From a plasmid, in the NCBI RefSeq assembly GCF_055900595.2, contig NZ_JBVWEU010000010.1: 4,996 bases of DNA. The stretch is one strand, 5' to 3'. This document shows positions 496 to 4,575 of this stretch, piece by piece. Numbering within the stretch: the stretch's first letter is position 1; each line of letters opens with the position of its first letter. Position numbers and translations under genes: made by a program. Below the pieces are notes generated by a model. It ran no database searches and was not told where the DNA came from. It saw only the letters and a list, made by a program, of their open reading frames with translations.

Positions 496-1554
496 ATGGC
501 GATCTATGCCGTATGGAATAACAAGGGTGGTGTAGGGAAAAGTTACCTTACTTTTCAGTTAGCCTCTGAATATGCCAGACAGAACCCTACTAAAAAGGTC
601 CTGGTGGTTGACCTGTGCCCACAAGCGAACTCGTCCTCTATGTTACTTGGTGGAATGATAAATGGCGAAAACACACTAAACCAGATTCATTCAGCAATAC
701 AGAGAAAGACAATATCTGGATATATTGAGGATAGGATCAGAAGTCCATATATTCCTACCAACACTGGTTCTAGCTATGTAATAAATGTATCTACACACAA
801 TAGTAAAGTTCCAAATAATCTATATCTTGTCACTGGCGATGAACAATTAGAACTCCAAGCATCAAGAGTTGTTGGGGCATCATTTCCAGGTCCCCATGAT
901 GCATGGCGTACTGTTCACCTCTGGATTAATGATTTAATCAGTGACATTTGCAACTCATGGAATAATGAAGATAGCTGCGTATTCATTGACTGCAACCCTA
1001 GCTTCTCTATTTATACAGAGTTAGCTTTAACCGCAGCAGAGCGCCTTTTAATTCCTTTCTCTGCCGATGGTTCATCAAAGAGAGCAGTTAAGGCTGTACT
1101 TTCTTTAGTTTATGGTGAGCGTCGCCATCAGAATGAACCACAATCAGATTTCTATCTTAATAGCAATCGTTATTCTATGTCGCTACCACAAATATATATG
1201 TATGTTGGAAATAGATTAACGCAAATGAACAATTCATCTGCCAGTGCATTTAAGACGGTAGTAACCGAAATTGGTGATGAAATTTGGAAAGTATGGCAAA
1301 CAAAACCAAGTCTGTTTTGTATTCACCCAAATGGGAGCTCAACGCCAAATAATAAAAGATCTTTCAGGAATATGTTTCAGTATGAAGTAAATGATGCAAA
1401 CACAGCATCTGTCGTATCTGGAGCCTTAGGTATTCCAATCGCGACATTAACTGCAGGAAATAAAACTGTTTCAGGAAAAATAATAAAGGTTAATCAGACG
1501 CAGCTAGATAAACAAGTCCCCAACATTGTAGCTCTCGCTGGTATGATCGAATAA
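496..1554 (+). CDS. ParA/MinD/Soj-superfamily P-loop ATPase, 352 aa, with ~90-aa C-terminal extension of unknown function
   Basis: ATG preceded by AGGAG (484-488, 7-nt spacer). Deviant Walker A KGGVGKS at residues 10-16 (nt 523-543); ParA-type VLVVDLCPQANSS segment; Walker B-like CVFID (nt 976-990) followed by NPSFSIYTELALTAAERLLIPFSAD. Long uninterrupted ORF ending at a strong intrinsic terminator. AT-rich compared with the backbone. No symbol assigned because the specific family is not recognised. Confidence 0.85.
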   Translation: MAIYAVWNNKGGVGKSYLTFQLASEYARQNPTKKVLVVDLCPQANSSSMLLGGMINGENTLNQIHSAIQRKTISGYIEDRIRSPYIPTNTGSSYVINVSTHNSKVPNNLYLVTGDEQLELQASRVVGASFPGPHDAWRTVHLWINDLISDICNSWNNEDSCVFIDCNPSFSIYTELALTAAERLLIPFSADGSSKRAVKAVLSLVYGERRHQNEPQSDFYLNSNRYSMSLPQIYMYVGNRLTQMNNSSASAFKTVVTEIGDEIWKVWQTKPSLFCIHPNGSSTPNNKRSFRNMFQYEVNDANTASVVSGALGIPIATLTAGNKTVSGKIIKVNQTQLDKQVPNIVALAGMIE

Positions 1555-1556
1555 AA

Positions 1557-1590
1557 TAGCAAGGCCCTTAAAAGGGCCTTTTTTTATTTG
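1557..1590. terminator. Bidirectional intrinsic terminator between convergent genes
   Basis: Perfect 7-bp GC-rich stem aaggccc (1561-1567) / gggcctt (1574-1580) with 6-nt loop, followed on the plus strand by a T-run (1581-1585 and beyond) and flanked on the minus strand by a weaker U-rich stretch. Lies 3 nt after the ParA-like stop and just after the stop of the 1584-1841 minus-strand ORF. Confidence 0.7.
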
Positions 1591-1841
1591 TTTTTCTTTA
1601 CTGCTTGCAGCGCCCTGCCAGCACTAGAGGCCAACTCTTTGATTACATTATCTTTACTTTCAACAACCTCAGTAAGCAACTCGTTTTCGTTTTCCAGTTT
1701 ATTCAAAGCGTTCTGAGTATCTTCAATAGCATCATCATACCCTTCGGCATAGCCATCCATCCAACCAAGAGTATACGTTTGGTCCAAAAGATCAGCTTGC
1801 TTATCCTGCAGATCTTTATTCTGATTATTGTTAGAGCCCAT
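1584..1841 (-). CDS. Small acidic hypothetical protein, 85 aa (D/E/N/Q-rich, probably helical)
   Basis: ATG at 1841 preceded on the minus strand by TGAGGAAAAAAC (GAGG about 8 nt upstream); ends at the shared terminator. The plus-strand antisense ORF (1605-1901) starts with TTG, lacks an SD and is hydrophobic, so the minus-strand reading is preferred. No recognisable family. Confidence 0.6.
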   Translation of the reverse strand: MGSNNNQNKDLQDKQADLLDQTYTLGWMDGYAEGYDDAIEDTQNALNKLENENELLTEVVESKDNVIKELASSAGRALQAVKKNK

Positions 1842-2016
1842 GTTTTTTCCTCATTTGTTGGCGCATCTGAGTTTTCAAACCAGGAGGAATTCCATTTCTA
1901 AGTTTCTCACTTAGTCTGACTGGTGGTGTGTTTCCTGAGACTGGATTACAGTCAGCATCCACCCCGACATCTTTCTTTTTATAGTCGCCAATATTCCTAA
2001 CGTTATCTGTAGTCAT
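1831..2016 (-). CDS. Possible small basic protein, 61 aa, overlapping the start of the 85-aa ORF by 11 nt
   Basis: ATG at 2016 downstream of the AT-rich divergent promoter region; its last codons contain the SD of the next ORF (translational-coupling geometry). No convincing SD of its own and no recognisable motif; may be only a 5' leader. Confidence 0.3.
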   Translation of the reverse strand: MTTDNVRNIGDYKKKDVGVDADCNPVSGNTPPVRLSEKLRNGIPPGLKTQMRQQMRKKHGL

Positions 2017-2179
2017 AGAAAACCACGCCCATTGCTGTGAATAACCGAACTATAAACCAGAAAAAAAACGTACGGCTTATCATAACACTTGACACAAAAA
2101 AACACCGCTACTCTCCAAGCAAAAAACATAAAATTGGAAAAACAAAATCACAAGCACATGATAACAATAGATATTAATA

Positions 2180-3273: not shown

Positions 3274-3594
3274 GTCAGAAACGCGCTGAGGGCGTTTCTG
3301 ACGGGAAACCGGTAAAACAGGCAACAAACCACCCGAAAACCCGCCAGAAACGCGCAGGCTCTGTTTTTATGGCATGCATGAGTATGCACGCAAGTGCATA
3401 GCGCGAATATTCACGCCATTCAGACAGGGTAAGTCCTGTTTCCGGCGTTCTTCCCATCCGAAAACGGTGAACGGGGACGCAATTTATTGCGTGGCCGTGA
3501 AGCGTTGCCGGCGCAGCCGGAAAACCGGTTTTCAGCACGTTCAGGAATCGGGTTCGTCGACGGCCGGCAATCACGTTATGGCAAGTCGCCGGAC

Positions 3595-3784
3595 GACTCA
3601 CCACACGATTCACCGGCGACTCTGCACTAGAGTCGTACCTAGAGTCGCCGCGACTAAAAAACAACCAAACGGGGAGTCGGGTCTAGAGTCGGGTCGTTAT
3701 TAACTCATTGTTTTTATAGCCCTGAGTCGTTACCGACTCTATGACGACTCGCCGGGGACTCTATGACGAGTCGTCATAGAGTCG
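3595..3784. repeat. Array of 12 GAGTC/GACTC motifs (11 as the hexamer GAGTCG/CGACTC), including two pairs of tandem 12-bp repeats and nested inverted repeats
   Basis: Counted directly: GAGTC at 3630, 3642, 3674, 3686, 3724, 3768, 3779; GACTC at 3595, 3618, 3735, 3746, 3757. Tandem ctagagtcg at 3627 and 3639; tandem gagtcgggtc at 3674 and 3686; 13-bp gactctatgacga at 3735 and 3757 (direct) and 3771 (inverted). Chance expectation for a 5-mer on both strands in ~190 bp is under 1. Confidence 0.7.
3757..3783. repeat. 27-bp perfect palindrome gactctatgacgagtcgtcatagagtc (13-bp arms around a central G)
   Basis: Every position i pairs with position 28-i; sits at the end of the GAGTCG array, immediately before an AT-rich stretch (3786-3860). 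Confidence 0.75.
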
Positions 3785-3982
3785 GATCTATATAAATAAA
3801 ATTTAAAAAACGAAATCTCAGGAAAGTAAACTACTGATATTAAATACAAATCTGCAAAATTTTAATTTTGCGTGGGGTGTGGGTATTTTTAGTGGTGAGG
3901 AGCGTTCAGAGATCTGACTATTTTTGGGAAGGTTCAGGAACTCCCCGGGATGGCCGGAGAGGAAAACTGAAGCATGACAGGG

Positions 3983-4384
3983 TCAGGATTTTTTCCAGAA
4001 TTTCCACCATGGCGCCGGGGATTCAGTTAATTTTGCCTGGTGATTTTCAAGAAGGAGCATGGCCTGTTTCAGGCTGTCAATGTGCGAATCTTTGGACAAA
4101 AGTAAAGTGTTCAGGTGTTCAATCTCCTGTTTCAGATGACGAATCACCTGTTCACACTGGTCAACAGAGGCTGTATCGCGCTGTTCAGAGACCTGTCCAG
4201 AATGGTGTTCACCCTTCAGTTGTTCAAAGGGACCAAAGACACGTAAAAGCTCTGAAGTATCTACCATTTTTGCATTGCGCTCACCGCTACAGGTGGACAG
4301 GTCACCTGCTTTAATTAACCTGTGCAGTGTTGTTCTACTCTTACCCGTCAGTCGGGCTGCCTCACTAATAGACACTCTGGCCAT
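3983..4384 (-). CDS. HTH DNA-binding protein (excisionase/MerR-like HTH_17-type N-terminus) with C-terminal coiled-coil-like region, 133 aa
   Basis: N-terminus SISEAARLTGKSRTTLHRLIKAGDLS fits the excisionase-family HTH pattern (EAAxLxGxSxxTxxRLIxxGxL); the C-terminal half is heptad-like and Q/E/L-rich. Start ATG overlaps the rop stop (TGATG at 4382-4386), implying co-transcription and translational coupling. Its antisense 148-aa ORF is Arg-rich and judged spurious. Confidence 0.7.
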   Translation of the reverse strand: MARVSISEAARLTGKSRTTLHRLIKAGDLSTCSGERNAKMVDTSELLRVFGPFEQLKGEHHSGQVSEQRDTASVDQCEQVIRHLKQEIEHLNTLLLSKDSHIDSLKQAMLLLENHQAKLTESPAPWWKFWKKS

Positions 4385-4575
4385 CAGTTACCATCCTGTA
4401 ATGCATCCAGTCTCGAGGACAGTGTACGGAAAAGATGCTCCGCATCATCGTGGAGTTTCTCACAAAGGTCGGCCTCGACATCAAGATCAAGCTCGTTAAG
4501 CTTCTCCAGCAGGAGCAGAGATTGATGCTGGATGAATTTAGCCATGTTCAGCGCTGTTTTCTGTTGTTTCGTCAT
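4384..4575 (-). CDS. rop: Rop/Rom RNA I-RNA II interaction modulator, 63 aa
   Basis: Translation MTKQQKTALNMAKFIQHQSLLLLEKLNELDLDVEADLCEKLHDDAEHLFRTL... closely matches ColE1/pMB1 Rop (MTKQEKTALNMARFIRSQTLTLLEKLNELDADEQADICESLHD..., recalled from memory), with identical length of 63 aa; located just downstream of the origin in replication direction. Confidence 0.9.
   Translation of the reverse strand: MTKQQKTALNMAKFIQHQSLLLLEKLNELDLDVEADLCEKLHDDAEHLFRTLSSRLDALQDGN

Follow-up and report, generated by a model that had tools for sequence, protein, structure and literature searches.

Type II toxin-antitoxin (TA) operons, such as HicAB, HigBA, RelBE and PemIK, join two small, overlapping, co-translated genes for oppositely charged partners, of which the upstream one is disordered and faster evolving, and they are spread patchily and horizontally over small plasmids and chromosomal islands beside other TA and defence genes. 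Two other kinds of small protein invite comparison: the acidic, helical proteins of mobile elements such as Ocr, ArdA and DinI, and the type Ib partition adaptors (ParG, omega), which have a flexible basic N terminus and are encoded next to a ParA-family gene on plasmids. Here we analyse a pair of genes that shares some traits with each of these. It lies on the minus strand of a plasmid sequence of 4,996 nucleotides (contig NZ_JBVWEU010000010.1, assembly GCF_055900595.2; "the window" denotes this whole stretch) and consists of an open reading frame (ORF) for an acidic protein of 85 amino acids (aa), named Dn, and an ORF for a basic 61-aa protein directly upstream, named Up. Up and Dn are translationally coupled and obligately paired, and they form an autonomous, horizontally mobile cassette of small plasmids and genomic islands; the architecture of this cassette is the familiar one of two-small-gene cassettes of mobile elements. 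As for its function, we tentatively favour a TA-like or partner-sequestration role. The parts of the pair are as follows.

1584-1841, minus strand: Dn, gene for the 85-aa acidic, predicted coiled-coil protein with an isoelectric point (pI) of 4.3, recognized from the ORF, the ratio of nonsynonymous to synonymous substitution rates (dN/dS), homologues and AlphaFold2 (AF2) modelling.
1831-2016, minus strand: Up, gene for the 61-aa basic, mostly disordered protein with a pI of 10.0, recognized from the ORF, dN/dS, in-frame indels and presence in 16 loci.
1831-1841, minus strand: stop/start overlap of 11 nucleotides (nt) between the Up TAA and the Dn ATG, the translational-coupling junction, with an overlap of 11 to 23 nt in every locus.
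1848-1852, minus strand: Shine-Dalgarno sequence of Dn, GAGGA, within Up codons R56-K57, read from the junction sequence.
1719-1778, minus strand: conserved core of Dn, residues 22-41 (TYTLGWMDGYAEGYDDAIED), from invariant alignment columns.
1599-1706, minus strand: heptad-patterned, leucine-zipper-like segment of Dn, residues 46-81, with a conserved Asn in LNxLENENELL, from the alignment, the hydrophobic pattern and AF2.
1981-2004, minus strand: short N-terminal motif of Up, N-[VI]-x-x-[FY] followed by K/R, residues 5-12, from the alignment.
1840-1917, minus strand: basic C-terminal helices of Up, residues 34-59 (RLSEKLR..GLKTQMRQQMRKKHG), from conservation between Enterobacterales and Vibrio plus a metagenome-assembled genome (MAG), and from AF2.

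The original prediction, made from the window alone, had placed both ORFs at these coordinates with the 11-nt overlap, and the ORF list bears this out. It had also credited Dn with a good Shine-Dalgarno sequence inside the 3' end of Up, and GAGGA is indeed found 6 nt 5' of the Dn ATG within the Up reading frame; in distant loci, GAGGA or GGAGG stands at the equivalent site before Dn. Up, which had been called only possibly present, proves to be as well founded as Dn. The sense frames of both are open in all 16 sequence-distinct homologous loci, which comprise six Enterobacterales plasmid lineages, Rep3/MobA plasmids, chromosomal loci (Vibrio alginolyticus, Pseudoalteromonas luteoviolacea, Parathalassolituus penaei and a gammaproteobacterial MAG) and four further loci, with metagenomic assemblies among their sources, one of the four being on a 4.7-Mb contig. 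Differences in the length of Up among relatives are in-frame. With the Nei-Gojobori method and lineages at dS of about 0.8 to 1.5, dN/dS is 0.05 to 0.10 for Dn and 0.18 to 0.28 for Up; the neighbouring ParA-like gene, at 0.013 to 0.024, is under far stronger constraint than the pair. In plasmids of Citrobacter, Enterobacter, Escherichia coli and Salmonella with 78 to 81% DNA identity over the region, annotations exist for both ORFs, and their overlap is again 11 nt. A 98-aa antisense ORF (1605-1901, plus strand) is open only in the window and not conserved, and was rejected as spurious. The open frames, the in-frame indels, the values of dN/dS far below 1 at dS of about 1 and the lack of conservation of the antisense ORF together show that Up and Dn are real protein-coding genes under purifying selection. 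The synonymous-site pattern in homologous plasmids, named by the original prediction as a possible ground for refuting it, thus fits coding for both ORFs.

That the two frames are chance ORFs, or that the region is conserved for some noncoding reason, would agree with the AT-rich sequence, with the absence of Up from the gene calls of identical RefSeq records and with the weak Shine-Dalgarno sequence of Up in the window. The substitution and indel patterns above, as well as protein motifs kept at saturated synonymous divergence, leave this explanation with practically no credence, and we regard it as excluded by the conservation analysis. A programmed frameshift that fuses Up and Dn at the A-run of the junction was likewise rejected, since distant loci lack the A-run and a stop codon lies in the Dn frame 4 codons upstream of its ATG. 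In plasmids identical to the window, Dn is annotated as the hypothetical protein WP_042109830.1, while Up bears no annotation in the corresponding RefSeq records (Prokaryotic Genome Annotation Pipeline, PGAP); it is annotated in relatives of about 80% identity, and the gene caller also skipped the Up-type ORF in one of the other loci (L043). Up is therefore a systematically under-annotated small protein, and its omission is likely due to a weaker Shine-Dalgarno sequence in the window lineage, GGGCGTGG compared to AGGAG in relatives.

The family is small and always paired. In a collection of 5.8 billion proteins, Dn has 44 homologues, and only 11 of 1.84 billion cluster representatives matched in a profile search at E < 1e-3, which indicates a very narrow family with no annotated distant relatives. 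The profile searches that the original prediction had proposed gave no family for either product in Pfam, NCBIfam, PHROGs or PADLOC, only coiled-coil noise and weak FliH matches, and no copy of Dn was found in a phage collection of 50,697 records. Up and Dn belong to no described protein family. Literature searches on DUF6530 (encoded next to the pair in the window), the protein accessions and the sequence motifs yielded no papers, and the papers found on ColE1 plasmids do not discuss the locus. All 16 loci have an Up-type ORF of 52 to 75 aa before Dn, overlapping its start by 11 to 23 nt, even where it was not called. Opposite charges are kept in each of the 14 pairs for which they were computed (Up pI, 8.2 to 10.4; Dn pI, 4.05 to 4.7). 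The hosts of the pair are small nonconjugative plasmids and chromosomal islands; among 5,426 complete E. coli genomes, six carry it, each time on plasmids of about 5 kb. Matches in viral contigs and Actinomycetota were not counted as members, being long, hyperacidic, low-complexity proteins that share only EGYxDGYDDA(V/I)ED. Four IMG/VR contigs (L034-L037, at about 5900-6650), for instance, encode hyperacidic proteins of about 200 aa with EEGYEDGYDDA(V/I)ED, as in the Dn core, and this likeness is probably convergent.

Dn had been described as dominated by D, E, N and Q and helical, and both traits hold: 33 of its 85 residues (39%) are D, E, N or Q, and AF2 predicts a helix. It has 17 acidic and 9 basic residues, a pI of 4.31 and a net charge of -8.5. 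The models suggest an acidic protein that is essentially one long helix, in which a conserved aromatic/glycine core precedes a zipper-like heptad segment. The invariant core reads Y-x-L-G-W-M-D-G-Y-x-E-G-Y-D-D-A-(I/V)-E-D and has small residues spaced four apart (T22-G26-G30-G34-A38); the heptad segment begins with LNxLENENELL, ends with ASNAGKSLQAVKK and gives weak GCN4-type matches. Two likenesses of the core deserve mention. The glycine repeat of FliH/SctL, AxxxG(xxxG)nxxxA, resembles the Dn series with its flanking aromatic and acidic residues and a coiled coil after it, and the four-residue spacing of small residues accounts for the FliH matches, which are the only NCBIfam matches of Dn (E of about 1e-3; 13.9 to 17.8 bits against curated cutoffs of 149 to 260 bits). 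Unlike FliH/SctL, Dn is only 85 aa long, has no C-terminal ATPase-binding domain and occurs in a plasmid context without flagellar or type III secretion genes. The best match of the core to a solved structure is the last TPR motif and capping helix of the SHNi-TPR histone chaperone NASP (PDB 7V1K/7V1M; E = 2.5e-4), in which the fourth TPR aligns HYQLGLAYGYNSQYDEAV versus TYTLGWMDGYAEGYDDAI, then a long helix. NASP, itself acidic, binds a helical, basic peptide of histone H3, which would be a functional parallel to a binding of Up by Dn. TPR proteins are tandem arrays of at least three motifs, whereas Dn has room for one 34-residue motif and is predicted by AF2 as an unbroken helix with no hairpin; homology is also unlikely because NASP is eukaryotic. 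Neither the FliH nor the NASP likeness amounts to family membership.

Up has a charge of +5.6, and its C-terminal half contains 8 K/R against 1 D/E. It is a basic protein with a short conserved N-terminal motif and, according to the predictions, a disordered middle and a basic C-terminal helix-turn-helix. Within the motif, N5 is invariant and V6 nearly so among 20 sequences, and the motif is also found in two further loci (L042 and L043). The middle part is variable and indel-rich. The conserved basic C terminus reads LSEKLR..I..GLKQQMR(Q/E)QMRKKHG(L/F), of which the terminal H/Y-G is partly fixed by the start codon of Dn embedded there.

Structure prediction, also proposed earlier, was run on both products. 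In an AF2 model of an Up-linker-Dn fusion built with a paired alignment of 14 sequences, Dn forms a single helix of about 80 residues, with a predicted local distance difference test (pLDDT) score of 77 to 92 in the zipper half and 62 to 71 in the core; the N terminus of Up is disordered, helices are placed at residues 35-42 and 45-59 (pLDDT, 57 to 68), and the predicted template modelling (pTM) score is 0.29. A lone helix of 80 residues cannot be stable, so Dn must oligomerize. A 2:2 arrangement was modelled as a tandem (Up-linker-Dn)x2 construct with artificial linkers, which make up about half of the chain. In the best model (one of five), pTM rises to 0.46 and pLDDT from 64-68 to 76-80 for the C-terminal helix of Up and from 62-65 to 85-87 for the Dn core, lending weak support to a predicted 2:2 assembly through these two elements. 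An apparent charge swap in one divergent clade (L026/L028), in which D29 of Dn is replaced by R and R40 of Up by E or D, fits the proposed interface. Fold searches returned no match for the monomeric fusion model and only nonsignificant SMC and EnvC coiled coils for the 2:2 model.

The pair may thus be an autonomous TA-like or partner-sequestration cassette whose products bind each other, Up by its C-terminal helix and Dn by its core; this is the explanation we prefer, tentatively. In such a cassette, Dn would dimerize as a coiled coil, Up would dock with its basic C-terminal helix on the acidic conserved core of Dn to give a 2:2 complex, and the stop/start overlap would keep the synthesis of the two proteins together. 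Each partner would restrain the other, Dn being stable and better conserved and Up disordered and quicker to evolve; one of the two, when free, would act on a host target, and the cassette would aid the persistence of small plasmids and genomic islands. The preference rests on the coding status of both ORFs, their obligate pairing, opposite charge, autonomy and mobility, the 2:2 model and the asymmetry of rates, by which the upstream disordered Up evolves faster than the downstream Dn, as in TA pairs. The original prediction had seen a geometry typical of TA or regulator-effector modules. Its geometric part stands: the genes are small, adjacent and overlapping, with the overlap of 11 to 23 nt and an internal Shine-Dalgarno sequence in 16 loci, and the coupled unit is mobile and lies among TA and defence genes as type II TA operons do. 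What did not appear is a TA fold or operator. Several results weigh against the cassette being TA-like. Neither Up nor Dn matches any toxin, antitoxin or defence profile, profile searches against the PDB are equally negative for TA superfamily homology, and the fold searches gave nonspecific coiled coils only. Unlike the downstream partner of type II operons, Dn is predicted to be a plain coiled coil and not a known toxin fold; unlike the upstream partner, Up has no DNA-binding domain, with no helix-turn-helix (HTH), ribbon-helix-helix (RHH) or AbrB domain recognized in either protein, and no operator-like palindrome or inverted repeats were found upstream of Up in 10 loci. The 2:2 signal comes from one of five models of a construct with artificial linkers and a 14-sequence alignment, judged by pLDDT and pTM, and the D29/R40 charge swap is a single evolutionary event. 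Lacking a known TA fold, DNA-binding domain and operator palindrome, the TA status of the pair stays hypothetical. A bolder reading, which strikes us as rather unlikely, is that the pair represents a new mobile two-protein class, in which an acidic coiled-coil dimer sequesters a basic disordered effector that carries N-[VI]-x-x-[FY] as a host-docking motif; its mode of action, whether TA, addiction or anti-defence, would be nonenzymatic and unrelated to known TA folds.

The neighbours of the pair outside the window lineage are variable and typical of mobile and defence islands: HipA, DUF4365 and a DUF87 ATPase at the Vibrio locus; DUF4160/DUF2442, ParE and a TIR protein at the MAG locus; HNH and SNIPE/T5orf172 nucleases elsewhere. 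On the Rep3/MobA plasmids (L023, 131-514; also L022, L024 and L025), a PemK/MazF-like gene of 127 aa with no antitoxin ORF on its own strand lies divergent from Up/Dn at a distance of 170 nt, and the pair might be a neutralizer or regulator of this PemK-like toxin.

The window itself is a complete circular ColE1-type plasmid of 4,996 bases, common in Klebsiella; more than 20 plasmids of 4,991 bp from Klebsiella, E. coli and Enterobacter match it at 99.3% identity over 100% of the length. The record of an identical plasmid has genes annotated for a 352-aa ParA-family protein, a hypothetical 85-aa protein, DUF6530, DUF2251, an HTH protein and Rop. The features around the pair and of the replicon are as follows.

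2017-2072, minus strand: 5' leader of about 55 nt, partly conserved among Enterobacterales plasmids, from alignment of upstream regions.
2079-2087, minus strand: tentative extended -10 candidate, TGtTATGAT, read from the sequence just upstream of the leader and not flagged by the promoter scan.
1561-1580, both strands: GC-rich hairpin, candidate bidirectional terminator common to the ParA-like gene and the Up-Dn operon, from a terminator scan.
496-1554, plus strand: ParA-like gene, 352 aa, convergent with the Up-Dn pair.
177-278: RNAI, from Rfam.
4384-4575: Rop.

As had been proposed, the pair converges on the ParA-like gene and has a terminator in common with it: the hairpin scores on both strands, with a weak T-tract on the minus strand (GCTATTTTAT).

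The main rival to the TA-like reading is a split transcription regulator, in which Dn would be a dimerizing zipper and Up the basic helix that contacts DNA, together controlling a divergent variable gene (DUF6530 in the window); in another form of the same idea, Dn would be an HTH-less antagonist of a DNA-binding relative. We consider these two forms, taken jointly, to be unlikely, for reasons on both sides. A variable cargo gene is transcribed divergently from the pair in five contexts and has the promoter region in common with it, the cargo being DUF6530, a 183-aa protein, the PemK-like toxin, an HNH-like protein and a 580-aa protein. Moreover, the product of the Vibrio gene directly upstream of the pair, 94 aa long, combines a Dn-like core (AYTKGYRDGFESAY..LADLENQ) with an HTH after it and scores 13.9 bits against the Dn profile, a value reached by 1 of 5,000 shuffles. 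However, profile-profile comparison with the small family of this HTH protein gives nonsignificant probabilities of 1.4% and 15.8%, no DNA-binding domain is detected in Up or Dn, no conserved operator repeats were found, and several loci have no divergent partner. We also examined the Vibrio protein as a Rosetta-stone fusion of a Dn-like and an Up-like part and rejected it (Up-like part reached by 49 of 5,000 shuffles; hhalign probabilities as above); its Dn-like part is suggestive and is kept only as a hint. The anti-defence role that the original prediction had read from the composition of Dn found no support. As a mimic of nucleic acid, acidic Dn, helped by Up, would inhibit a restriction protein or DNA-binding protein of the host, and Dn is indeed small, acidic, helical, on mobile elements and often near defence-type genes, much like Ocr, ArdA and DinI. 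Yet its charge density is much lower than theirs, with a modest net charge of -8.5 and 17 D/E against 9 K/R; its predicted shape is a long coiled coil, and whereas Ocr and ArdA stand alone, Dn invariably comes with a basic partner. It matches no anti-restriction family and is absent from the 50,697 phage records, and the matches in viral contigs are low-complexity acidic proteins only. DNA mimicry therefore seems to us quite improbable.

A functional tie to the ParA-like ATPase, also implied by the original prediction, fares still worse. The pair would here act as a centromere-binding or ATPase-stimulating adaptor in place of ParB or ParG, and in all Enterobacterales ColE1-type plasmids with the pair, ParA and the pair do form a conserved convergent block around one terminator, at dS of about 1 to 2.8, and the window plasmid has no ParB-like gene annotated. 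But in eight other contexts the flanks that were fetched around the pair contain no ParA-type gene, and the 352-aa ParA type (62 to 81% identity) occurs with no Dn match on plasmids of Proteus, Erwinia, Acinetobacter, Aeromonas and Acidovorax, at least five plasmid lineages. The two are hence separate modules, co-inherited in one plasmid lineage. In contrast to ParG and omega, which the pair resembles in having a small protein with a flexible basic N terminus next to a ParA-family gene, Up and Dn show no centromere-binding fold (RHH or HTH) and are convergent with ParA and not in its operon. A better candidate adaptor is the HTH gene at 3983-4384, beside an array of GAGTC repeats. The distribution largely refutes the adaptor explanation, and we hold it to be very unlikely.

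Some further observations concern the plasmid and its other genes. Around the DUF6530 promoter, AT-rich direct and inverted repeats occupy 2163-2242 (e.g., 2178-2191 and 2217-2230); the gene has a predicted sigma-70 promoter, TTTACT-16-TATAAT, at 2180-2207, and the repeats are a possible operator of it. At least 12 repeats with a GAGTC/GACTC core, in both orientations, are densely arrayed over 3577-3796, with a perfect 19-nt inverted repeat at 3733-3751 and 3767-3785. The array is upstream of the HTH gene (3983-4384, minus strand), about 190 bp from its start, and the product of this gene resembles the "plasmid replication DNA-binding protein" family rep_pAB02_ORF2 (E = 4e-17, below the cutoff). 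The array could be an iteron, an operator or a centromere-like site, and could be a better candidate partner of ParA than Up/Dn. The orphan 352-aa ParA, with no ParB-like gene annotated, is found on plasmids of 2.9 to 8 kb from Klebsiella, Proteus, Erwinia and Acinetobacter, and active partition is unexpected on high-copy ColE1-type plasmids. A copy of this ColE1-type plasmid, NZ_CP059753.1 (hit H24/H44), is deposited under Enterococcus faecium, probably by contamination or mislabelling, since a ColE1 replicon is implausible in a Gram-positive host. Shorter "complete" plasmids, NZ_CP079813.1 (L017; 3,264 bp, replicon type not assigned) and those recorded at 3,518 and 3,724 bp, retain ParA, the pair, DUF6530 and DUF2251 and may be deletion derivatives or assembly artefacts.

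The cryptic plasmid of about 5 kb that carries the cassette is present in many clinical isolates of Klebsiella, Enterobacter and E. coli, and genomic islands of marine gammaproteobacteria contain related copies. The ParA-like ATPase, separated from the pair by this work, is a puzzle of its own as an orphan of very small plasmids. Were Up and Dn only a regulator of neighbouring cargo genes, their interest would be local; as an addiction or regulatory module, they would help to explain how these small plasmids persist and would extend the repertoire of TA systems and defence islands by a family that is protein-only and lacks an enzymatic domain.

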